64,000 nt of DNA, taken from assembly GCA_963666055.2 (NCBI GenBank), contig CAXWPH010000005.1, positions 1-64,000 on the forward strand. Direction: 5' to 3'. Positions within the stretch are counted from its first letter, which is position 1. Every line of letters begins with the position of its first letter. The notes below the pieces were generated by a model. The model saw only the letters and a program-made list of their open reading frames with translations. It searched no databases and was not told where the DNA came from. The stretch comes from Acidobacteriota bacterium. Its GTDB lineage: Bacteria; Acidobacteriota; UBA890; WLXD01. Below are positions 44,918 through 61,332 of this stretch, piece after piece. The position numbers and the translations under genes are program-made.

Positions 44918-44992
44918 GCCTGGTTACCCCATTCGCTACGCCAAATTATCAGGAATTGAGGGCATGCTATCGTGCAGGGCCGACACGCCGAC

Positions 44993-45270
44993 CTAGCAGG
45001 CCGTGGTGAAAGTGTGGTGGGTCTGGCGACAGGGTCTTGCGAGGTGGAGGCAAGGAGAGAGGAGGAGGCGATGGATACCCCATCGTTGACGAGGAACGAC
45101 GCAGCATACGCGCGCAACCCCTGTCGCCCGAAGGGTTACGGCGATTTGGGGCCATCTGCAGCGTTGGCCTTCCTCGACGATGGCTAGGGCATCGCCTGTG
45201 TCAGGCCGCCTTGCATCTGGCCCCAACTCGCCGTAACCAGACCCACCACACTTTCACCACGGCCTGCTAG
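44993..45270 (-). mobile_element. MITE copy B (278 bp, inverted relative to copy A)
   Basis: same TIRs and CTAG ends; interior highly similar to copy A. Confidence 0.9.
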
Positions 45271-45285
45271 CGGCGCGGAGGATCC

Positions 45286-46824
45286 ATGAGCGCAAGCATT
45301 TCGTCGAACCGGATGCTGTTCACCGCATCCTTTGTCGCCCTGGTCACGACCGCCTTCGCCTTCATGCTGCGCATCAATCTGATGGGAGTGTGGGAGATTG
45401 CCTACTCCCTGGACAAGACTCAGGTGGGCACGATCTTCGGCGCCGGATTCTGGCCTTTCGGCGCCAGCATCATCCTCTTCAGTCTGATCATCGACAGGGT
45501 GGGCTACGGCAAGGCGATGGCGTTCGCGTTCGTCTGCCACGTCCTCTTCGCAGTGCTCACGATAACCGCCACCGGCTACCGCATGCTCTATTGGGCGAGT
45601 GTCATCGGTGCGCTCGGCAACGGCGCGGTCGAGGCGGTGATCAACCCGCTGATCACCACCGTGTACGCGAAGGATAAGACCAAGTGGCTCAACATCCTCC
45701 ACGCCGGCTGGCCGGGAGGTCTCGTCATCACGGGCGTGCTCGTCCTCAGCGTGGGCGATGCGGTGCCCTGGCAGTACCAGATCGCGGTGATCCTCATTCC
45801 TACCTTCATCTATGGCGCGATGATGCTGCGAATGGAGTTCCCGGTGAGCGAACGGGTGGCCGCGGGCGTCTCGTATCGCGCCATGCTTGCCGAGGTTGGC
45901 TGGGGCGGTGCATTCGTCGCGTTTCTCCTCATCGTGATGGAATTAACTACCAACGTTCTCGGTATCGAAGCGTTGATGAACATCTGGGTCCAGGTAGGGA
46001 TCGCCGCTGCGCTGGCCGCGGTGTATGGCTTCTACGCCCGGTCGTTTGGCCGGCCCCTGTTCGTCTTCATGCTGGTGCTGATGCTGTTTCTCGCCACCAC
46101 CGAGCTCGGAACCGACAGCTGGGTCAAGGACTTGCTCGGGCCTGCGATCGGCACGACGCTCGGCATCGATTCAGGCTGGGTGCTGGTCTACACCGCACTG
46201 ATCATGATGGTCCTTCGCTTGTTAGGGGGCCCCCTGGTGAAGCGCCTACAACCGCTGGGAGTTCTCGCGGTCAGCGCCGTGCTGGCGGCCGCAGGCATCT
46301 ATTGGCTGTCGGTGCTCGGAGGCGAACCGAGCACCACGGCCATGGTGATCATCATTGCCGCGACGATCTATGGCGTCGGGCAGACGTTCTTTTGGCCGAC
46401 CACACTGGGCTTCATCTCCGAGCAGTTTCCCAGGGGCGGCGCCATGACCCTCAACGTCATCGCTGGCGTGGGCATGCTCGGCGTCGGCGTCCTCGGCAAC
46501 GTCTGGCTAGGCAATTTGCAGGACAAGTCCGTCGTCAGCGCTCTCCAGGAGCGCAGTCCCGAGCTGGTGGCACGCTATGTCGAGGAAAGGCCCCCGAGCA
46601 TCTTCGGCGACTATCGTGCCCTTACTGACGAGGCCGTCGAGGTAAGGGAAGCCAACGTAGCCCCCGACGCCGACGCACTTGCGACAGCCACCAATGAGGG
46701 CAAGATGACGGCGCTGCGCAAGGTCGTGGTCCTCCCCCTCATCATGCTGCTGGCCTACCTAGCACTGCTGTTCTGGTTCAGGTCGAGGGGTGGCTATCGA
46801 CCGGTTGAGTTCGGTTCCGGCTAG
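45286..46824 (+). CDS. MFS sugar transporter
   Basis: about 12 TM helices; NGAVEAVINP; HAGWPGG; FFWPTTLG. Confidence 0.9.
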   Translation: MSASISSNRMLFTASFVALVTTAFAFMLRINLMGVWEIAYSLDKTQVGTIFGAGFWPFGASIILFSLIIDRVGYGKAMAFAFVCHVLFAVLTITATGYRMLYWASVIGALGNGAVEAVINPLITTVYAKDKTKWLNILHAGWPGGLVITGVLVLSVGDAVPWQYQIAVILIPTFIYGAMMLRMEFPVSERVAAGVSYRAMLAEVGWGGAFVAFLLIVMELTTNVLGIEALMNIWVQVGIAAALAAVYGFYARSFGRPLFVFMLVLMLFLATTELGTDSWVKDLLGPAIGTTLGIDSGWVLVYTALIMMVLRLLGGPLVKRLQPLGVLAVSAVLAAAGIYWLSVLGGEPSTTAMVIIIAATIYGVGQTFFWPTTLGFISEQFPRGGAMTLNVIAGVGMLGVGVLGNVWLGNLQDKSVVSALQERSPELVARYVEERPPSIFGDYRALTDEAVEVREANVAPDADALATATNEGKMTALRKVVVLPLIMLLAYLALLFWFRSRGGYRPVEFGSG

Positions 46825-46836
46825 CAGGCCGTGGTG
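46821..46836. repeat. isolated MITE terminal repeat (CTAGCAGGCCGTGGTG)
   Basis: overlaps the MFS stop and the FGGY kinase GTG start. Confidence 0.8.
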
Positions 46837-48327
46837 CAGGGGCCTCGCGAGGCGCTGGTGATCGGGCTGGACCTGGGCACCGGTGGGGCGCGGGTGGTGA
46901 TTGCCAGTGCCGGCGGCGAACTCCGAGCGACGGGTCACGCCGACCTCGAGGCCGGTGCAAGAGTGCCGAGCCCCGCGCCGCCGGGCTGGCACGAGCAGGA
47001 TCCCGAAACCTGGTGGAAGGCTGCCAGATGGGCGATCCGCGACGCCCTGCGACAGGTCCGCAAAGTCCCGCATGTCGCAGACTGTCTGCGAGCCATCTGC
47101 GTCGATGGAACGTCGGGAACGGTCGTTGGCATAGACCGCGATGGCAACGCTACGACGCCCGCACTGATGTACAACGATGCGCGCGCCGAGGCGGAAGCCC
47201 ACCAACTCGACGCGCTGGCTCATGAGTATGGTGAAGCGACCGGTCCGCGCATCAGCGCGTCCTTCGGCATCGCAAAGATGCTGTGGATCCAACGGCACCT
47301 GCCGGAAGCATTCGCTGCGACACACATGTTCGCGCACCAGGCCGACTTCATTGCCGGCCGGCTTACCGGCCAGGTGGGCACGACCGACTACAGCAACGCC
47401 ATGAAGTCGGGGTTCGATCTCACCCGCGGGTCGTGGGCTGAATGGATCGACAAGTACCCCGACCTGCGCTCCAAGTTGCCCCGCGTCATGGCGCCAGGTG
47501 AGTCGCTTGGCGACGTATCTGGCGCCGTCGCCGACGAGCTCGGGCTGCCTCGTGGCCTCACTGTAATCGCCGGGGCCACCGATGGCACGGCCGCCTTTCT
47601 GGCGTCCGGGGCGCGTCGCATCGGCGACAACAACACCACCCTGGGAACGACGCTGGTGTTCAAGCGCGTGGCTGACCGCTACGTGCAGGATCCGGATGGT
47701 CTGCTGTACTGCCACAAGTTGCCTGGCGGATCCTGGCTGCCGGGCGCTGCCAGCAACGTTGGTGGAGATTGGATTCGAAAGGACTTCGCCGGCGCCGATC
47801 TCCGGCAACTCGACGATGCGGCAGGCGAGTTGCTGCCGACGCAGCAGCTTGCCTACCCGCTCCGCACGCGGGGCGATCGCTTCCCCTTCAAGTCCATCGA
47901 CGCGGTGGGCTTCTGCGAGCCGGAGGTCACCGAGTCGAGTGTGCGCTACGCGGCCAACCTCCAGGGCACAGCGTTTGTGGAGCGCCTGGGCTACGAAGTG
48001 TTGGATCGCGCCACAGCTGGTGGCGATCAGATCACGTCTGGGGCGGTCTATGCCACCGGCGGTGGCAGCCGAAGCGATGTCTGGATGCAGCTTCGAGCCG
48101 ACGTGTGCGGTCGTGCCTATCATCGACCGAGCTGCCACGAATCGGCGTTCGGAAGCGCCATCCTGGCGGCGGCGGGCACGATTCATGAGAGCCTGCGGGA
48201 TGCGAGCCAGGCTATGGTAAGAATCGCCAGGACGTTTCGCCCGGATCGAGCCCGCCATGAAATGTACGAAGAGCTCTACCAGCGATTCCTGCGGCTTCTC
48301 GAGCAGCGCGGTTTCCTGACCAGGTAG
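46831..48327 (+). CDS. FGGY family carbohydrate kinase
   Basis: GLDLGTGG, EQDP, DGTSGT, GATDG, TGGGS. Confidence 0.93.
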   Translation: MVQGPREALVIGLDLGTGGARVVIASAGGELRATGHADLEAGARVPSPAPPGWHEQDPETWWKAARWAIRDALRQVRKVPHVADCLRAICVDGTSGTVVGIDRDGNATTPALMYNDARAEAEAHQLDALAHEYGEATGPRISASFGIAKMLWIQRHLPEAFAATHMFAHQADFIAGRLTGQVGTTDYSNAMKSGFDLTRGSWAEWIDKYPDLRSKLPRVMAPGESLGDVSGAVADELGLPRGLTVIAGATDGTAAFLASGARRIGDNNTTLGTTLVFKRVADRYVQDPDGLLYCHKLPGGSWLPGAASNVGGDWIRKDFAGADLRQLDDAAGELLPTQQLAYPLRTRGDRFPFKSIDAVGFCEPEVTESSVRYAANLQGTAFVERLGYEVLDRATAGGDQITSGAVYATGGGSRSDVWMQLRADVCGRAYHRPSCHESAFGSAILAAAGTIHESLRDASQAMVRIARTFRPDRARHEMYEELYQRFLRLLEQRGFLTR

Positions 48328-48332
48328 CTCCC

Positions 48333-49016
48333 ATGACCCAGATCGTCACAGAGATGATTGAAGCGGCCCGACAGCTGGTGAGCACCGGCCTCGTAACGGG
48401 AGCAGGTGGCAACGTCAGTGCTCGCGACGGCGACCATATGTGGATTTCTCCGAGCGGATTCTCACTCGAGGACGCGCGGCAAGAGCACTATCCATGCATC
48501 TCGGTCGCAACCGGGGACATCGTCTCGGGCGATTTCCGTCCCTCTTCAGAAGTCCTGATGCACCTCTACGTCTATCGCGCGCGACGCGACGTGAACGCCG
48601 TCTTCCACGCTCATCCGAAGATGACCATCGCCCTATGTTCGGCGGGCCACGACCTGCTCCCCATGTTCGCGGACTACTATGTCTACCTGGGGGCCAATGT
48701 CCCGCACGTGCACTACGTCACGGTTACCACGCCGGAGCTGGCGCGCATCGTCGAGCGCGAGTTCAAGGCTTCCGATTGCAAGGGCATGGTGCTCCGGAAC
48801 CACGGCACAATCACGGTCGGGGCTTCGGTCAAGGAGGCCGCCTTCCGCACGTACGCGATGGAGGAGCAGGCGTTCATCCAGTGGCATGCGCTGCAGGTCG
48901 GCGATCCGACCTATCTGACAGCAGAGGATTGCGCGAAGCTCGATGCGCTCGGCAGCGAGGAGTACCGGAGACGGTTGCTCGCGGAGATGAAGTCGACCAC
49001 CTCAAACGCGTCATGA
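48333..49016 (+). CDS. class II aldolase/adducin family protein
   Basis: GGNVSAR, PSSEVLMH, HAHP, LRNHG. Confidence 0.93.
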   Translation: MTQIVTEMIEAARQLVSTGLVTGAGGNVSARDGDHMWISPSGFSLEDARQEHYPCISVATGDIVSGDFRPSSEVLMHLYVYRARRDVNAVFHAHPKMTIALCSAGHDLLPMFADYYVYLGANVPHVHYVTVTTPELARIVEREFKASDCKGMVLRNHGTITVGASVKEAAFRTYAMEEQAFIQWHALQVGDPTYLTAEDCAKLDALGSEEYRRRLLAEMKSTTSNAS

Positions 49017-49035
49017 GCACACGGAGCGCCCTGCA

Positions 49036-49749
49036 TTGACGTCCCGCGCACTGCTGTTCGACCTCGACAACACCCTCTACCACTACACCCCCTGCGACGA
49101 AGTGGCGCTGGTTGCGACGCGGGCGGTGCTTGCGCAGCACATCGACATCTCGGCCGCCGAGTTTCGGCGACTCCACGACCGCGTTCGTAGCGAGCTCGCG
49201 GAGCGCCTGGGCGGCCAGGCCGCGTCCCACAATCGCACCTTGTTCTTCAAGTCCATGGTCGAGCAACTTACCGGGGCGTGCGGCGGTGATCTCGCCTTGC
49301 GCATGTCCGACCGTTACTGGGAGACTTTTCTCGACTACATGAAGCCCGCGCCCCGCACCCGCGGTGTTCTGGAGAGCCTTGGCGCGAGGCACGATCTGGC
49401 GCTGGTCGTCAACCAAACGGCATATGTCCAGCTGAGGAAGATCCAGCGGCTCGGAATCGAGCGCCACTTCCCGGTGGTGGTAACGAGCGAGGAATGCGGC
49501 GCCGAGAAACCGGACGCGCGCGTGTTTCAGAGAGCCCTGAGCGCGCTGGGCGTCGAGGCGGCCGCGGCGGTGATGATCGGTGATGATCCACACTGCGATA
49601 TCCGCGGCGCCTCCGATCTCGGGATCTCAACGGTTCAGACGACGGAGTTCACCGGCGCGCGCCTCGGGGACGACCAGGTCGGCGCCGGACCCGACGACGT
49701 TATCGGCTCGCTAGGCGAGCTTCCGGAAGTGCTGTCCCGCCTTTCCTGA
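49036..49749 (+). CDS. HAD family hydrolase
   Basis: FDLDNTL, EKPD, MIGDD. Confidence 0.92.
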   Translation: MTSRALLFDLDNTLYHYTPCDEVALVATRAVLAQHIDISAAEFRRLHDRVRSELAERLGGQAASHNRTLFFKSMVEQLTGACGGDLALRMSDRYWETFLDYMKPAPRTRGVLESLGARHDLALVVNQTAYVQLRKIQRLGIERHFPVVVTSEECGAEKPDARVFQRALSALGVEAAAAVMIGDDPHCDIRGASDLGISTVQTTEFTGARLGDDQVGAGPDDVIGSLGELPEVLSRLS

Positions 49750-49813
49750 GATGCGCCGGACTCAAAATCCGGTGGGCTTACGCTCGTGAGGGTTCGAGTC
49801 CCTCCCTCGGTAC
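49749..49813 (+). pseudogene. 5'-truncated tRNA-Leu(CAA), left att site
   Basis: anticodon arm CCGGA-CTCAAAA-TCCGG, long variable arm, T arm GAGGGTTCGAGTCCCTC; 5' acceptor strand missing. Confidence 0.8.
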
Positions 49814-49928
49814 TTTTGTTTTCAACAACTTACACAGATTCATTCCTTGCCGGCTCACCATCTCGTTGATCGCTATCGGGGCGAAGGGTGAGGTGCAACC
49901 CCGTGATTGAACGTGGGCTGCTCAAGCG

Positions 49929-49992
49929 GGATAACGGACACTCGCTTAAGCTGCAGCGCGAAGCGCTGTCAGTCTTCAAGCGATTGTTAGGC
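49929..49992 (-). other. integron attC site
   Basis: minus strand GCCTAAC-AATCG-CTTGAAGACTGACAGCGC-TTC-GCGCTGCAGCTTAAGCGAGTGTCC-GTTATCC: RYYYAAC...GTT ends and imperfect palindrome. Confidence 0.85.
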
Positions 49993-50803
49993 CGCTGCAC
50001 CTTCTTGATCCGGGCACCAACGCCACGTACGCCCCCACTGGATCCTGAAGCACCGCATATGCGTACCCCCGATCGTTCGCCGGTGTCTCCTTGATGATCT
50101 TACCCCCTTCCTGCGGTACGCGACGGAGACTTTCGGCGAGGTCGCCAACGGGGAGGTAGAGCATCCAGACAGGCGGCACATCCAGGTTCACGCCGCGGGC
50201 ATGGCAGACGCCCGCCGCGGCGTTTCCATCATCGCCGAGCATATTGTAGTCGGCGTAGCGCTTGCTCGCGTCGTCCATCTCGACGTCCTTCGCGCTCCAG
50301 CCAACGACCTGTCCGTAGAACTCACGAGTTGCCGTGGCGTCAGATACCGTCAAGTCGAGCCAGGCGACGCATCCCACAGGCGCCGACGGGTCGCGAGATG
50401 CGGCGCCGTCTGATGCGGAAATTTCGTCCGCAGAAACGACTGGAATGATCCCGAACGCCGCCCCATTGGGATCGAGCAGCACCGCCCACTGGCTCTTTCC
50501 ATCGTCGTCCTTGCCATGCATGAGCTCGCTCCCGCCCAGACCCAGGGCACGCTCAACACTCGTTGCGACATCATCGACCTGAATGTGCGGCATCCATTGG
50601 AGCGGGAGCATCTCATGCTCCGTGCTACGCGCGCCCAATCCGATGATCGGCATGCCGAGGTTGTTCATTAGATCCTCGCGCCAAAGCGGGCTCTCACCCG
50701 TGCTGAGTACACGCGAGTAGAAGCGCACTTCACGTTCGTGTTCGGGAACGGCGATGTCGGCGCTGAGGACTCCGCCGACGCGTGGAGCAAAGGGGTCACT
50801 CAT
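49976..50803 (-). CDS. two-domain VOC/glyoxalase protein, integron gene cassette
   Basis: WMPHIQVDDV, DPNGAAFG, WLDLTV, DPVGA; flanked by GTTAGGC and attC. Confidence 0.9.
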   Translation of the reverse strand: MSDPFAPRVGGVLSADIAVPEHEREVRFYSRVLSTGESPLWREDLMNNLGMPIIGLGARSTEHEMLPLQWMPHIQVDDVATSVERALGLGGSELMHGKDDDGKSQWAVLLDPNGAAFGIIPVVSADEISASDGAASRDPSAPVGCVAWLDLTVSDATATREFYGQVVGWSAKDVEMDDASKRYADYNMLGDDGNAAAGVCHARGVNLDVPPVWMLYLPVGDLAESLRRVPQEGGKIIKETPANDRGYAYAVLQDPVGAYVALVPGSRRCSGLTIA

Positions 50804-50869
50804 GGTTTGACCTTCTCGAAGAATCGTGCCGGGTGAGGTCACACTTCGTGTCGGTTTGATCCGGGGTCG

Positions 50870-51052
50870 GCCTAACTAGTATTCGACTGCATTCATCGAT
50901 CCGCCATGGTTGACGATTCCCGCGTCTAACGCAACGGCCACGAGAGCTCCAAGTTACTGAGTGGAAAGGAATTGAACGGTCATGGCGAGGACGGCTGGCT
51001 GCGAGGTCCGCGGCTAAGGATCCCGGCGGAAACTCGGGGCGCTCGCGTCTAA
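50870..51052 (-). other. attI-like site
   Basis: GCAGTCGAATACTA-GTTAGGC core at 50870-50876; three TTAG(A/C)CGCG repeats at 50921, 51009 and 51044; directly after the intI remnant. Confidence 0.6.
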
Positions 51053-51136
51053 GCGTCTTCGAGTTCATCGGCCGGGCTGACCACACCTCGGCCTTTGTTC
51101 AGGACGTGGGGTGTAGATAATCGTCGTCTTGGACAG
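51049..51136 (-). pseudogene. intI: integron integrase C-terminal remnant
   Basis: LSKTTIIYT (+1 frameshift) HVLNKGRGVVSPADELEDA*, matching the IntI TTxIYTHVLNxGxxGVxSPxD tail. Confidence 0.8.
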
Positions 51137-51157
51137 GGTACGATTCGGACCGTCGAG

Positions 51158-51441
51158 GAAGTCCTGCTCCTCCCGCATCGACTGGGTAACCAGTGGAAAC
51201 TAGTCGGGTGACGAGCGCTAGCGAGGAGCCAACCAGTCCCCCCTGCTTGTCGGCGCCGATGTTGTCCGCAGGAGCGAAGCGACGAGGACTAGCCCCTCAG
51301 GGCTACAACATCGAGAGCCAGACTTCGGCCCTTTTGGTCGGAAGGTGCGAGCGTGCGAGCTCCTGACGATCCCGACAGCCGTCGAAACGATAGGAAGCGG
51401 AAAAGGGGCGAAAGTCGGGCTCGTGCCCGACAAGCAGGGGG
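51158..51441. repeat. multi-hairpin non-coding element, copy 1
   Basis: homologous to 56526-56705; nested inverted repeats; 15-bp perfect IR 51239-51253/51427-51441. Confidence 0.75.
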
Positions 51442-51562
51442 AACCCGTAAATGCCTATCCCACAAGGGTTTTGTGGGAACCCCTACCCCTACAAACCCTA
51501 GACAACTCCGCCTTCGGAGCCAGGAAACTTTCACACTTACTTACACATTCGCGTGACGAACA

Positions 51563-51618
51563 GGACTCAAAATCCGGTGGGCTTACGCTCGTGAGGGTTC
51601 GAGTCCCTCCCTCGGTAC
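51563..51618 (+). repeat. tRNA-Leu 3' fragment, right att site
   Basis: begins inside the anticodon stem. Confidence 0.85.
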
Positions 51619-51622
51619 TTTT

Positions 51623-51651
51623 GTTTTCAACGACCTATGGTTGTTGAAAAC
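51623..51651. terminator. terminator-like hairpin after the tRNA fragment
   Basis: GTTTTCAACGACC-TAT-GGTTGTTGAAAAC. Confidence 0.5.
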
Positions 51652-51712
51652 CAGCGGCGCCCGCTGACTTCTACCAGATAGGCACGAGGTCCGGAGCGTA
51701 CGCCATCGGTCG

Positions 51713-53479
51713 TTAGCGGACACCTGGGAGCGAAATCCTCTCTTCACGGATCTCATGTACGACCCTACCGTCGAAGACCGTCATGTCAGTGCGGACTTTG
51801 TGGATCTCGAGCTCCGGTACTGCGAAGAGGTTCTTCTCGAGAACGACGAGGTCTGCCAGCTTGCCGACCTCGATCGAGCCTCGCTCCAGCTCATCGAAGG
51901 ACAGGTATGCACCGGAGATCGTGTAGGCGGCGATCGCCTCCGCCAGGGTGATCCTCTCGTTCGGTGCCCAGGACTCGTCGGTTTGGCCGTAGGTATCGAC
52001 TCCGCCGAGGTGTCTGCGCGTGACCGCAACCTCGAGCCCGTCCAAAGGGCGCAATGAGGTCACAGACCAGTCGGTTCCCCACACGAGTCGGGCACCGGCC
52101 TGCAGGAGCGTGCGGTGGTTGTAGACCCGTTGAGCCCGATCCGCTCCGAGGTGTCTCAAGTTGTAGATAGCCGTCCAATCATCGCCCTTGCCCCAGAAGG
52201 GTGTCATGTTCGCGGCCACCCCCAACAGGCGCAGACGCGGTACGTCGGCCGGATCGATCAGTTGCACATGCGCCATGTTGTGGCGCGCGTCGCGCGGGCC
52301 ATTGGCCCGGCGAACGGCCTCGAACGCATCGAGAGATTCCCGCACCGCCCGATCACCGATGGCATGGATCTGGACCTGGAAGCCCTCTCGGTCAAGACGC
52401 GTGACCACCCGTTTCAGCCGTTCCGCTTCAACATGGGGTTCGTAGACAACGGGTTGGTCGCTGTATGGCTCGAGGAGTGCTCCGGTGCGTTGCTCGATGA
52501 TGCCGTCGTTGCCGATCTTGATACAGGTCGCTCGGAGGTTGCCTGAGGAGAGTTCCTGGCGCCGAGCGATGAACTCCCGGATCTGCTCCTCGTCATCACG
52601 GGAAGGGCTGTAGCGCTGGCAGGTCACGGCCCGCAGGTTCATCTCGCCAGCGCTCAGCAGACGCGCGTAGAGTCGCTCCCCCTCCGCCGAGGATGAAGCG
52701 TCGTGGATCGAGGTGATCCCGAGACGAGTGAACTCGGTGAAGGCGCGCCGCAAGCCATCGACGCGTTCCTGATCTGTTGCCGGCGGCATGTGGCGGCGCA
52801 CGAGACCCTGTGCGCTGTCGATCAATAGGCCTGTCGGCTCGCCGTTCTCGTCGCGCCTGATGATGCCGTTGACTGGGTCGGGCGTTGCCGCTGTGATGCC
52901 GGCGATCTCCAAGGCACGGCTGTTCACCCAAGCGGCGTGCGTGCCGGAAAAGGTCAGGTAAGCAGGTCGATCGGTGACAATCTCATCGAGCATGTAGCGA
53001 TCCGGGTTCCCGGAAGGCTTGAAGGCGTCTGCTTCCCAGCCACGACCGACGATCCAATCGAGCTCGGGATGAGCCTGCGCGTATTCTTCGAGGAGGCGAA
53101 AGACCTCGTCTCGATCAAAGACACCGTTGAGCCGAATCCGGCCCAGGCCGGCCCCCCCACCGGCCGGGTGAACATGTGAATCCTGGAAACCGGGCAACAT
53201 CATGCGGCCGCGAAGGTCGACGACCGGTGTTCCAGCGCCGACGAACGGCACCGCACCGTCGTCAGTGCCTACGTAGACGATGCGGTTGCCCGCGACAGCT
53301 ACTGCCGAGGCCCAACTGCGCGCAGCATCGACCGTGTAGATCGCACCATTGCGAAATACCAGGTTCGCTACCTGACGCCCGTTGTGCTCCCCGATTGGCC
53401 CATCGTTCGCCGGAAGAACCGGTGTCGCGGGGGCCACAACAAGCAACAGGCTCAGCGCCGTCCTAGCCGTGAAACTCAT
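51713..53479 (-). CDS. secreted amidohydrolase (Amidohydro_3/YtcJ-like)
   Basis: PGFQDSHVH, HAIGDRA, GTDW, GKLADLVVL. Confidence 0.92.
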   Translation of the reverse strand: MSFTARTALSLLLVVAPATPVLPANDGPIGEHNGRQVANLVFRNGAIYTVDAARSWASAVAVAGNRIVYVGTDDGAVPFVGAGTPVVDLRGRMMLPGFQDSHVHPAGGGAGLGRIRLNGVFDRDEVFRLLEEYAQAHPELDWIVGRGWEADAFKPSGNPDRYMLDEIVTDRPAYLTFSGTHAAWVNSRALEIAGITAATPDPVNGIIRRDENGEPTGLLIDSAQGLVRRHMPPATDQERVDGLRRAFTEFTRLGITSIHDASSSAEGERLYARLLSAGEMNLRAVTCQRYSPSRDDEEQIREFIARRQELSSGNLRATCIKIGNDGIIEQRTGALLEPYSDQPVVYEPHVEAERLKRVVTRLDREGFQVQIHAIGDRAVRESLDAFEAVRRANGPRDARHNMAHVQLIDPADVPRLRLLGVAANMTPFWGKGDDWTAIYNLRHLGADRAQRVYNHRTLLQAGARLVWGTDWSVTSLRPLDGLEVAVTRRHLGGVDTYGQTDESWAPNERITLAEAIAAYTISGAYLSFDELERGSIEVGKLADLVVLEKNLFAVPELEIHKVRTDMTVFDGRVVHEIREERISLPGVR

Positions 53480-56525: not shown

Positions 56526-56705
56526 GGGACGAAGTCCTGCTCCTCCCCTATCGACTGGGTAACCCGTGGAAACCAGTCGAGCGATTCGCATCAGCGATCG
56601 CTAACAAGTCCCCCAGCTGTCGGAGCCGATGTTGTCCGCAGGAGCGGAGCTCCGAGGACTAGCCCCAACAGGGCTACAACTTCGAGAGCCAGACTTCGTC
56701 CCTTT
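56526..56705. repeat. multi-hairpin non-coding element, copy 2
   Basis: homologous to 51158-51335; closed by an 11-bp IR GGGACGAAGTC/GACTTCGTCCC. Confidence 0.75.
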
Positions 56706-56734: not shown

Positions 56735-58327
56735 GTGGCCGAGACCGAGCAGTGGGCGCAGCGTCGCGTCAACTTGTCCGACCTCGCGGGGCAGACGGTG
56801 TCGCTGACCCTGGAGGCGAATGCGGATCACGCCGGCAGCGTCGCGCTCTGGGGGGCACCGACCCTGAGCGGAGCCCGCACCAAGGAGACACCCAACATCA
56901 TCTTCTATGTGATCGACGGTGGTGGGGCTGACCTCATGAGCCTGTATGGCTACAACCGGCGTACCACCCCGCACCTGGTACGGATAGCCGCTGAGGGCGC
57001 GGTCTTCAACTACGCCTACAGCAACTCCACCTGGACGCGCCCCTCGACGCTGTCGTTCCTCACCTCGCTGCAGCACAGCGTGCTCGGGGGCCTCAGGAAC
57101 GGCCGCAACACGGCCCCTGAAGAGGTACTGACCATCCCACAGCACCTGCGGCGGGCCGGATACCAGACAGCCTTTTTCACGTCGAATCCCAATGCTGGCA
57201 GAATCAGCGGTCTTGATCGAGGCATCGATGTCCTCCGCGACGCGGGAGGCGGCGACAACTCCACCTCGTCCATGGAGCTGCACGGCGATTTCTGGCGGTG
57301 GCGTGCGGCGTACCCTGCCGAACCCTATTGGGTACGCTTCCAGACCACCGACGTCCACGCACCGAACACTCCGGTACCACCCTTCGCCGGCCTGTATGTG
57401 AGTCCGGATCAGCGAGCGACCTACAGGGCGTGGATGCGCCAGATCGACGCAGCCGGGGGCTCGTTCCCATACTCGGACGCCTTCGAGAAGACCGGCATCA
57501 ATCGACAGGCGTTCTTCGACGTCGCCCGCGGCCTCTACGACGAGACGATGGCGCATCAGGACTACCAGCTCGGGCGCTTCGTCGAGCGGCTGAAGGCGAC
57601 GGGGGACTGGGACAATACGCTGCTGATCGTGGCGGCGGATCGCGGGCACATCGCCGGCAGCGAGCATTTTGGTGTCGGGCTCGCCGACCCTATGCCCGCC
57701 ATGTGGGAAATCGCGATGGCGAGTTCCTACCACACGCGGGTTCCACTGGTGATCGTCTGGCCCGCTCGCATCCGCGGGGGGCAGCGGTTCGACGAACCTG
57801 TCTCGATGATCGATGTGCTGCCGACGGTTCTGGCCCTCGCGGGCTTGCCGATGCCGGATGTCATGCAAGGACAATCGCTCGCGCCTCTCTTGCTGGGCAA
57901 CGAAGGATGGGAGCCACGCCCGGTGATCCTCGATGAGTTCGACGTCGATCCCGGCACCGACGAGCTCCGAGGAACGATCGAAGTGATCGACGGGCGCTGG
58001 GCGGCGTCGCTGTTCATCGACCCACGTCCTGGCATGTCAACTCTGCCGCTCAGAGGTCATCACGACGGGCTCGCGGCCAAGAAGGCGGCATGGAATCAGC
58101 GCCCGCAGAGCGTCCCACGCCTGCTGTTGTACGACCTGTGGAGCGATCCGCGAGCCTTTTACAGCGTGCATGAGGAACACCCTGCGCTAGTCGAGCACTA
58201 CACGGCGTTCCTTGAGGCGCAGTTCGAGGCACACGAGTTGCTGGCGCAGAAGTTCACGCCAGGCGAGGATTCGCCACTGACTCCTGAGCAGCTACGGTCT
58301 CTTCGGGCACTTGGCTACATCCAGTGA
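56735..58327 (+). pseudogene. sulfatase-like hydrolase, apparently 5'-truncated
   Basis: [23 protein letters not shown]; no signal peptide or RBS; ADRG where DHG is usual. Confidence 0.7.
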
Positions 58328-58337
58328 GTTGAAGAGG

Positions 58338-61051
58338 ATGATCGGCACCAAACTAGGCCCCTACGAGATCACCGAGCAGCTCGGCGCTGGCGGTATGGGA
58401 GAGGTGTACCTGGCGCAGGACACGCGCCTGGGCCGCAAGGTGGCCATCAAGGTGCTGCCCGCCGAGTTTGCCTCTGACCCCGAGCGCCTCGCCCGCTTCG
58501 AGCAGGAGGCTCGCGCTGCCGCCGCTCTGAACCACCCTCACATCGCGGTTGTTCACGATATCGGCACCGAGGATGGCACCCACTTCATGGTGCAGGAGTA
58601 CCTGGAGGGGAACACGCTACGGGAGCCGCTACAGAAGGGTGCCCTGCCGCTCAAGAAGGCACTCGGGTTGGCCACCGAGATCGCCGAGGCACTCGCAGCA
58701 GCACACGCTGCGGGGATCATCCACCGGGATTTGAAGCCGGAGAACATCTTCGTCACCAAGGAGGGGCACGCCAAGGTGCTGGACTTCGGCCTGGCGAAGC
58801 TGACCGAGATAGCGGCAGGATCACCGCGGTGCAACGCAGTCACCCACGATGATGGGCACGGTGGCCGGTCAGGTGATGGGTACTGCCGGCTACATGGCAC
58901 CGGAGCAGGTTGAGGGCTCCGAGGAGATCGACCATCGGGCCGACTTGTTCGCCTTCGGCTGTGTGCTCTACGAGATGGCTGCGGGCAGGCAAGCATTTGC
59001 CGGTGAGAGCATCCACGACACCCTCCACCGCATCGGACACCGGGAGCCCAAGCCACTCGATGAGATCGATGACAGCCTCCCATCCCAGCTCCTTTGGATC
59101 GTCCGCAAGTCGCTCGCGAAGGAGCCGGGACGGCGCTACAGGGTGCTGATGACCTCATGGTGGACATGAAGGCATTGGCGCTTGAGGTGGAGTCGGGTGC
59201 GGCACAGCCGGTCAGCGGAGAGGCCCCGACAACCCCTGTCGCCGTGGAAACGGCTCGCGGCATCCCGTGGAAGCTGGCTGCTCCGATCGCGATTCTACTC
59301 GTGGTCGTTGCTGCACCGCTCGGCTGGTGGGCAAGGCAACCGGAGCCCAGAAGCACCATCCGCGTGCAGCTCGACCCCCTCGTCGACACGATCATGAGTC
59401 GGTTCGGCTCCGCAGTCGCGTTATCGCCCGATGGACGGCACGTTGCCTACGTCGAGGGTGACCTGTTGGATGGAAGCGCGCTGTACCTTCGCGCTCTCGA
59501 CCAGCAGGACTCGACGATACTCGCGTCGTCGGCAACCATCCTGGGTTCGCCGTACCATCCCTTCTTCTCGCCCGACGGGCAGTGGGTAGGGTTCGTCACC
59601 CAGACGGAGCTGAAAAAAGCGTCCGTAATCGGAGGCACCCCGCAGTCGATCGCGCCGGTGGACTTTAGTCGAGGTGCGGATTGGGGGCCCGACGATACGA
59701 TCGTCTTCACACCAAACCCCACCAGCGGCCTGTTTGTCGTGTCGGCTGTCGAGGGTGAGCCGGGACCGCTCACCGAGCTTTCCGGGGGCGAGCGCAGCCA
59801 CCGCTGGCCCCAGTTCTTACCCGGCGGAAAGGCAGTGCTATTCACTTCGGCCGAGACCGAAGACTTCGACAGGGCCAACCTCGAGGTCGTAGATCTCGAG
59901 ACCGGCGAGCGCCAAGTCGTGCACCGGGGCGGCACCTATGGCCGATACGTGCCGACGGGCCATCTGGTGTATTCAGACGCTGGAGCGTTGTTCGCGGTGC
60001 CCTTCGACCTCGATACCCTGGAGACGACCGGCTCGCCGATACCCGTGGTCGACAACCTCCCCGCCGACGACGCTGAAGGCGGGGTCTCGTTTGACTTCTC
60101 CGAGACCGGGATGCTCGTCTATCACATCAGAAGTGGCGGCGCTTCGGGCCGTTCCCAACTCGCCTGGGTGGAACGTGACGGCCAAGTCGAGCCGCTGCCC
60201 TTCGAGCCGCGTCCGTCTTGGTTCTTGGACCTCTCGCCGGATGACCAGCGCATCGCGCTCGAAATCCCCGGAGATGACGGGGAGTGGGACATCTGGATCT
60301 ACGAGGTCGAACGAGGAGGCAGCCAGGTGCTGCTGACCACGGAAGGCAGCAACCGAACCCCCGTTTGGTCTCCGGATGGAGAGTGGGTTTTCTTCCGATC
60401 GGATCGGAGTGGCAATGACGACATCTGGAAGCGGCGGGCTGACCGGAGTCTCGACGCCGAACTGGTGTTGGATACAGAGGCTCCCGTGTTCCCGACGTCG
60501 ATCTCGGACGACGGTGAGATGCTGCTGTTTGTGAGTGGGCTCCTCCCGAATCACGACGTGGGGATACTGGCTCTCGATACAGGTGATACGGAATTGATCC
60601 TCGATACCGCCGCCACTGAGTCTTGGCCCAGTTTCTCGCCGGACGGCCGCTTCTTCGCCTTCTTTTCGAACGAGACCGGGCAAGACGAGGTGAACGTGCG
60701 GGAAGTATCGAGCGGTCGGACGTTTCCGGCCTCTACGAGTACCCGTGGTGGCTGGTTCCCTAGCTGGTCGCGGGATGGAAGGGAGATTTACTACCGCTCC
60801 TTTAACAGCCCCGGCATCCTCGTTGCGGAAGTGGATTTGGAGTCGTTTTCCGCATCGGACCCTGTCGAACTCTCGGACATCGAAATGCGTGCCATTGGCA
60901 ACTTCGATGTCACCGCCGATGGACAGAAGTTCCTTGTGACGGTGCCCGTTGGAACTGATGAGACTGGGGCACGGCACCGGGCACACGACTCAACGTCGTC
61001 CTCAACTGGTTCGAGGAATTGAACCGGCTAGTGCCGACGGGCGGCTCCTGA
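58338..61051 (+). CDS. Ser/Thr protein kinase with PD40/TolB repeats; frameshifts near 58825, 59139 and 60975
   Basis: [44 protein letters not shown] repeats, [10 protein letters not shown]. Confidence 0.9.
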
Positions 61052-61332
61052 TGGTCGGCAAGACGCTCGGCCACTACGAGATCCTCGCCCCGCTCGGTGA
61101 AGGCGGGATGGGACAGGTGTATCGAGCCCGCGACACGACGCTGGATCGTGATGTCGCCATCAAGGTGCTGCCTGAGGACTTCGCCAGCGATGCTGGTCGG
61201 CTGGCGCTCTTCGAGCGACAGCCGGAATGGGAACTATTAGACGAGCTCCAGGACGCACGGCTCCTCGAGAGACGGCGGGTGGCGGCGCACGCTCCCCGGA
61301 ACGGACTACCTCCCGTGGTCGGCAAGACCTGA
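61051..61332 (+). pseudogene. truncated second Ser/Thr kinase (first ~55 aa only)
   Basis: [40 protein letters not shown]...FER, then unrelated sequence. Confidence 0.85.

Follow-up and report, generated by a model that had tools for sequence, protein, structure and literature searches.

Layout of the locus and its surroundings

The window, a stretch of 64,000 nucleotides (C5:1-64000) of the 5.73-Mb genome G000, carries on its minus strand the remnant of an integron integrase gene (intI), an attI region, a VOC gene and an attC, in this order and with every part where the initial annotation had placed it (Table 1). Upstream of the remnant on the same strand lie the 3' half of a tRNA-Leu with a hairpin and an arm-like motif, followed by a structured repeat. 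Downstream of the attC, a remnant of an alkylation-repair gene precedes a second, longer tRNA-Leu piece, which is abutted by the stop of a HAD hydrolase gene.

Table 1. Features of the relic integron and of the segment that encloses it (window positions).
Feature	Position	Strand	Basis
Right boundary, attR-like: arm-like motif (51528-51547), tRNA-Leu 3' half (51563-51620), extension and hairpin (51623-51651)	51528-51651	+	75-bp direct repeat
Structured repeat, ~300 bp, with 18-nt inverted arms (51236-51253, 51427-51444)	51155-51460		second copy in the window, two in G003
IntI gene 3' remnant, last 26 codons	51049-51130	-	IntI C-terminal HMM; DNA identity to G002
attI region	50870-51052	-	colinear with DNA behind co-oriented intI in G002 and G019; core in metagenome loci
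attI, R-box-like direct repeats	51052-51044, 51017-51009, 50930-50921	-	
attI, inverted heptamer	50915-50909	-	
attI, core	50890-50870	-	
Gene cassette, 941 bp	49935-50875	-	complementary ends, 5' end in G021, sediment coverage
Two-domain VOC (glyoxalase-like) gene, 275 aa, Rv0577-like	49976-50803	-	PF18029, PF00903, 3oxh
attC, 64 bp	49929-49992	-	covariance model and bottom-strand fold
DNA alkylation repair (PF08713) gene end, ~20 codons, rest deleted	49840-49901	-	97-99% identity to the gene ends of G003 and G004
Left boundary, attL-like: tRNA-Leu(CAA) without first ~20 nt, 3' extension, arm-like motif	49749-49836	+	

Short-read contigs from two host-associated studies, one of them possibly the source, span the junctions at 50847-51592 without difference or gap, and the IntI tail is covered gap-free by sediment contigs from two other studies. 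Because contigs span both without difference or gap, the junctions and the frameshift described below are not assembly errors. An acidobacterium-like host had been proposed from the sequence; the identity of RecA to two Acidobacteriota genomes (70-71%, against 60-66% to three other phyla) fits this proposal and is no proof of it.

Several features were recorded around the locus. A transporter/FGGY kinase/class II aldolase/HAD cluster (window 45570-49750) shares 90% identity with its counterpart in G002, beyond which a 31-nt piece of tRNA-Leu is found at a distance of 3 kb; the cluster may itself be island cargo. A stretch of 280 bp with internal inverted similarity (window 44991-45270) is 97% identical to G002 L058:6660-6940, where its order relative to the neighbouring cluster differs. 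At window 58311-61332, a Ser/Thr kinase-like gene is broken across frames (58311-58913, 58849-59169, 59094-61022), with a second kinase-like start at 60949; similar kinase 5' ends are found by the dozens in G000. Just past the window, at C5:65608-65685, ARAGORN detected a tRNA with anticodon CUA (tRNA-Pyl).

Integrase remnant, attI and cassette

The intI remnant reads KTTIIYT at 51130-51110, followed by one extra C and by HVLNKGRGVVSPAD from 51108. The codon of the catalytic Tyr is 51115-51113, and the extra base sits in the C run after it. A frameshifted IntI C-terminus with the catalytic Tyr, as originally claimed, is therefore present, whereas the stop does not follow straight after SPAD: the frame continues for five codons (ELEDA) to a TAG at 51051-51049. 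The window no longer contains the part of the gene that encodes the IntI-specific additional domain (patch III region).

A C-terminal HMM was built from the last 30 residues of 79 IntI proteins, taken from 79 of the 80 loci with relatives of the G002 IntI. In the six-frame translated genome, its best match was the second piece of the tail (20.3 bits, E 0.002). The whole tail, with X at the break, scored 37.6 bits, compared with 11.5 bits for the best non-IntI (Xer-like) recombinase; the two Xer-like recombinases concerned scored 11.5 bits or were absent among the best 25 matches listed. At the DNA level, the tail is 75% identical to the intI end of the congener G002, a 286-aa open frame that reaches 350 bits with TIGR02249 (cut-off 265) and 134 and 119 bits with the XerC and XerD models, respectively. 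The concern raised at the outset, that the peptide might match XerC/D, is met by the IntI-like score of the tail, which, as far as can be read from its sequence, derives from an integron integrase gene and not from XerC/D.

The IntI tree was calculated by a quick method from 86 rows, with L065 (no motif) and the short L083 and L132 left out. Its co-oriented rows require three changes, so that they do not appear as a single clade; the IntI of G002 and G019 group together (support 99) within a weakly supported set of 19 rows, ten of them co-oriented and none divergent. The window tail is too short for placement in this tree.

The spacer between the tail and the cassette has a length of ~175 bp and ends in the crossover G/TTAGGC at 50876/50875, the heptamer GTTAGGC occupying 50876-50870. 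The three TTAG(A/C)CGCG repeats attributed to this region of ~180 bp were found at their positions, with starts at 51052, 51017 and 50929. Such 9-mers occur 16 times in the genome, counting both strands, and 0.0003 would be expected per 190 bp.

From the intI end to the crossover, the window could be aligned with G002, the first two repeats and the core being in register. The G002 locus consists of a co-oriented intI, the repeats and core at the same spacing, and then seven attC on the intI strand. G019, a member of another family, has a frameshifted intI, the end of which lies at the same distance from the core as in the window. Of 26 genomes of the class, 8 have the core with at most one mismatch (reversed control: none). 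A metagenome search for the core yielded 37 loci, including some duplicates and probable chance matches in coding DNA; a co-oriented intI or intI end lies 330-390 bp upstream in seven of them, and one has a divergent intI. Where attC were recorded at these loci, 21 of 22 are downstream on the same strand, and at L200 and L207 whole IntI genes adjoin the same core. In the set of 80 G002 IntI relatives, attC are downstream and on the intI strand in 13 and in the classical arrangement, upstream on the opposite strand, in 10; both integron layouts thus occur in this set. By homology and position, the spacer is assigned as attI. The homologous order in G002, G019 and the metagenome loci likewise bears out the placement of attI at the intI 3' end, that is, the co-oriented (inverted-integrase) layout.

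The attI1 site carries the accessory IntI binding sites DR1 and DR2, and by analogy the repeats in the window may be accessory IntI binding sites. The third repeat was also inspected by eye as the possible end of a hidden attC and rejected, the nearest R''-like heptamer being just 36 nt away. No cassette promoter (Pc) conforming to the sigma-70-type consensus was detected in 49700-51750. A search of the main text of papers for two exact spellings of the core gave no co-occurrence with the word 'integron'.

Three more attI cores are present in G000, bringing the total to four. At C3:132496(+), the full attI and the last intI codons are followed by a small gene and an attC; at C10:46237(-), most of attI precedes a transposase-like ORF, presumably IS5-like; and at C15:1046412(+) the core alone is retained.

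The R' box of attC follows the consensus GTTRRRY. In the window attC, R' (GTTATCC, 49935-49929) departs from it, and R'' (GCCTAAC, 49992-49986) is the exact complement of the GTTAGGC at the 5' end of the cassette, the complementarity of the cassette ends extending to 9 nt. A covariance model of our own, not that of IntegronFinder, was built from 22 attC of other genomes without any window sequence (paired cells 93.5% versus 77.6% when shuffled). It ranked the site first in the 64 kb with 31.6 bits (E 7.6e-5 by a rough calibration), the next match having 14.4 bits, which agrees with the attC originally proposed here on the complementarity of R'' to the cassette start. The bottom-strand fold has a z-score of -4.36, with 1 of 200 shuffles as good, both R boxes being unpaired and R' pairing poorly with R''; the top strand folds slightly better (-18.6 versus -17.5 kcal/mol), and no bottom-strand bias is seen. 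A strict search rule with a spacer of 5-6 nt missed the site together with most G002 sites; the relaxed rule (5-10 nt) was tuned after the window site was known, the covariance model being independent of it. In the genome-wide model search, in which 150 of 8543 candidates were scored, the window attC was absent from the matches listed. Elsewhere in G000, five attC lie behind an IS3-like element at C15:773819-778504(+), a CALIN in whose vicinity no intI was detected; a single attC stands by itself at C14:42053-42114(+).

The cassette had been delimited correctly, and its ends are complementary. In G021, from another family, the same cassette 5' end directly follows the attC of a different cassette, and boundary 50875 is therefore fixed independently; this assembly comprises 780 contigs and is 81% complete, and the contig concerned, which ends inside the VOC gene, may be mis-binned. 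In four sediment runs, each from a different study, near-identical contig pieces extend over 49933-50876 and hardly at all into the flanks, the runs having been found with the cassette stretch itself and their depths summed across organisms. The sharing of its 5' end with another array marks the cassette, at the level of sequence, as mobile.

The VOC gene, present within the cassette as initially annotated, most likely starts at the ATG at 50803. It ends inside attC because this allele has lost the usual stop of the family; its product has 275 aa, whereas a length of 265 aa prevails among the 120 homologues listed. Based on its PF18029 and PF00903 domains and the match to 3oxh (E 3.5e-14), the predicted product is a two-domain VOC protein similar to Rv0577. 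Homologues made up 2774 of 5577 candidates, the named ones coming from Planctomycetota, Acidobacteriota and Gemmatimonadota.

Given that the tail measures just 26 codons and that lone cassettes are described as common, alongside attG sites, in the available account (bioRxiv 10.1101/2022.09.11.507474), the locus could be viewed as a lone cassette (SALIN) at a secondary site attG, where the apparent tail and attI had arisen by chance or from an island or Xer recombinase. This is contradicted by the colinearity of tail and attI with co-oriented integrons at the DNA level, by the rank of the tail with the IntI HMM and by the ending HVLN..G.GV.SP.D, which is missing from the 14 listed tyrosine recombinase C-termini of G000 itself, the C10 intI pseudogene apart. 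With attI and intI remnant both present, we consider an attG insertion highly improbable.

Loss of the integrase and the tRNA-Leu segment

A profile search of G000 revealed no whole intI above the TIGR02249 cut-off. The best IntI match was a second pseudogene, C10:50422-50736(-), with a TAG at the position of the catalytic Tyr. The window tail differs from this native copy and therefore likely came from another integron. The truncation of the window intI and its frameshift recur in G004, which has the same truncation point and extra base in a stretch 94% identical to window 49969-51204, and in sediment contigs from the two other studies. We conclude that the integron is dead, because G000 has no whole intI and the same truncation and frameshift are found in a congener and in sediment contigs. 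At E 1e-60, no whole intI was detected in 26 genomes of the class, the best being that of G002, which is without the first ~40 profile positions.

The native co-oriented integron of the genus, to which the C10 pseudogene belongs (further loci L055 and L056), sits behind a toxin-antitoxin-like gene pair, which we take to be MazEF-like. Its intI has eroded from the 5' end to unequal depth, with profile starts at 42 (G002), 100 (G004) and 201 (G000). At the metagenome loci L201 and L202, the attI core seen in the window is likewise preceded by 5'-truncated intI tails, which cover profile positions 309-329 and 277-329, respectively.

No tRNA gene was found in the window by ARAGORN, and an Rfam search of the window returned a sub-threshold tRNA match alone. 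The intact tRNA-Leu(CAA) of G000 is located at C15:521264-521348, and the left piece in the window matches it in 65 of 66 nt (C15:521284-521349). The two window pieces form a 75-bp direct repeat (97% identity) with an arm-like motif inside each end, and they enclose a segment of 1.8 kb that is displaced from the intact tRNA. Within this segment, the VOC gene is the sole ORF with a Pfam match, and no match to PF00589 was obtained. The segment resembles a cis-mobilizable element in its att-like, tRNA-derived ends and in having neither integration nor transfer genes of its own; the left tRNA copy lacks its first ~20 nt.

The arm motif adjoins tRNA-Leu fragments in G003 and G004 as well; of 301 genomes of the phylum, three carry it, and these belong to a single genus. 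Two viral matches to the motif proved to be unrelated. An integrase matching the arm motif was not found, and a search of a plasmid collection gave no match.

In G003, an intact tRNA-Leu(CAA) forms the left end of the segment. Behind it come the alkylation-repair gene, IS copies, the right flank (93% identity) and a tRNA fragment, and integron parts are absent. The IS block begins inside the alkylation-repair gene, near the G004 junction, and ends at the equivalent of 51184. This segment is the first in a tandem array of 42 kb (G003 C33:493279-535155; L163, L164, L053) with one intact tRNA-Leu(CAA) and nine 3' fragments, in which the segments measure 0.56-11.7 kb and two kinds of arm-like motif lie upstream of the fragments. 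A tblastn search with 15 queries found neither a tyrosine recombinase nor an intact island in ~54 kb of the G003 array and the G004 stretches; the sole match, an integrase, lies in G002, 1.5 kb upstream of the tRNA. Separately, a 4.9-kb segment that begins precisely with a tRNA-Leu fragment is shared by G002 (L171:3450-8371) and G000 (C15:476177-481095) at 99.4% identity, the near-identity suggesting recent transfer as a unit between species-level genomes.

The structured repeat, to which the IntI tail is joined at a distance of 24 bp, was seen solely in G000, G003 and G004; the second copy in the window (56528-56705) is 84% identical. Its fold has a z-score of -3.69, and a paired two-sided change was observed at 1 of 91 pairs in three copies. 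Covariation on these three copies gives no evidence of a conserved RNA, and no Rfam or Pfam match was obtained for the repeat.

Carriage on a tRNA-targeting element, as advanced in the initial annotation, accords with the att-like ends; an intact tRNA end, an integrase and an intact island or working integron were not found. In the congeners, the G004 copy is already dead. The case for carriage is drawn solely from G000 and G004 because the G003 segment, which does sit at an intact tRNA, lacks the integron parts. A real relic could also have been placed by IS-driven or other rearrangement in a plastic region that piles up island remnants, the tRNA-derived ends not being its vehicle. The IS copies that G003 holds in place of the integron are in line with such a history, as are the absence of the segment at the intact tRNA in G000 and in G004, the different gene that G004 carries between tail and right end, and the position of the other three attI cores of G000, none of which is beside a tRNA-Leu fragment. 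Against it, the relic is bounded in both G000 and G004 by the shared left end and by a right end that bears the common arm motif, and the IS block of G003 replaces just the stretch that holds the integron. Placement by rearrangement is, on balance, unlikely, and these comparisons of sequence make it likely that the relic was carried on the tRNA-Leu segment.

Our preferred reading, to which we assign a probability of roughly 85%, is a decayed co-oriented integron in an integrase-less 1.8-kb segment, which is likely what is left of an element that had integrated at tRNA-Leu(CAA). According to established integron biology, a once-whole IntI would have recombined the G/TT of the double-stranded attI with the folded bottom-strand attC of a circular cassette, placing the VOC gene at 50875. 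The comparison with G004 suggests that a rearrangement beside the structured repeat then truncated intI and that the frameshift followed, both before the G000 and G004 copies split, by which the array would have been frozen. Later deletions would have taken most of the downstream alkylation-repair gene; in G004, where the copy of this gene matches PF08713 (E 1.1e-18), attC is cut by a deletion running into it. The segment would now move solely if another element supplied a tRNA-Leu integrase, in the manner of a cis-mobilizable element, and movement of the cassette would require that an IntI arrive from elsewhere and act in trans. A promoter located upstream likely drives the VOC gene.

A different view of the same decay is that attI still serves as an integrase-less docking platform, which takes up cassettes with IntI supplied in trans, outlasts the erosion of intI and is distributed by tRNA-targeted segments. 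The four cores of G000 are all without a whole intI, and two of the others keep an attI of ~200 bp and the last intI codons; 6 of the 37 metagenome loci likewise consist of a core and a downstream attC with no intI in the 900-1500 bp upstream. In addition, G000 and G004 share 97-100% identity over the first 900 bp of the relic (76-90% in the last third of the VOC gene), compared with 90% in the amidohydrolase nearby. The first cassette is, however, the same in G000 and G004, so that no capture after the loss of intI is seen here, and the four attI copies are unequal at their left ends, the pattern expected of random erosion. Eight runs, all of them contig sets, which drop rare forms, contained no excised form or empty-site joint, and the lack of a whole intI in the 26 genomes of the class also speaks against an attI in service. 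We therefore regard continued use as doubtful. The same applies to the broader proposal of dispersed integrase-free attI platforms, four of them here, that would be loaded by IntI in trans and move between species on tRNA-Leu(CAA) segments; two nested layers of cassette-like mobility, neither with a recombinase gene, would follow from it and are just as improbable. If a solo attI were active in trans, this would constitute a further route to the origin of CALIN and SALIN elements.

Comparison with known systems

Transcription of intI toward attI has been described in Treponema (PMC3607928), archaeal attI sites are located downstream of intI (PMC9668308), and the inverted-integrase group is given as paraphyletic (PMC4889954). 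The window resembles these co-oriented integrons in that intI points toward attI and the cassettes, the first GTTAGG heptamer lies ~200 bp past intI, and the cassette carries its attC on the intI strand. It differs from them in that 26 codons of a frameshifted intI and one cassette are left, and in its setting in an island remnant and not at a fixed chromosomal locus; compared with the integrons of Treponema and archaea, the attI sequence is from another lineage.

Pseudogenes account for nearly one third of intI genes in the survey of PMC2426708, and were reported near 15 of 279 CALIN (PMC4889954). As in the pseudo-integrons, CALIN and SALIN of these accounts, an attC here remains without a working integrase through loss of intI. 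Unlike a CALIN, which has at least two attC, the window has a single one, and although this makes it formally SALIN-like, the retained attI sets it apart from an attG insertion. The tail is also too short for the usual pseudogene search, in which more than 50% of the profile has to be covered. Moreover, two species-level genomes have this intI pseudogene in common, a situation described as untypical in PMC2426708.

Cis-mobilizable elements and tandem accretion at tRNA genes, as presented in PMC5704250, share with the segment the att-like tRNA 3' ends, the lack of integrase and transfer genes and the tandem arrays, seen here in congeners. Unlike in these elements, the left end in the window is a tRNA that has lost its 5' part and lies apart from the intact gene, and no cognate integrase was found. 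In the treatment of additive flexible islands by PMC3698932, integron and tRNA islands are handled as separate loci.

According to PMC4889954, attI sequences are unknown for most integrons. The present locus supplies a defined example whose core is shared and whose three repeats are fixed in position, while published attI alignments could already hold the core. Together with the whole IntI genes beside the same core (L200 and L207), it allows an attI x attC assay to be designed for co-oriented environmental integrons. Co-oriented integrons, intI pseudogenes and decayed islands are each already in print, and the relic is an ordinary case of known decay, to which the shared attI core, with its four copies in G000, makes a modest addition.
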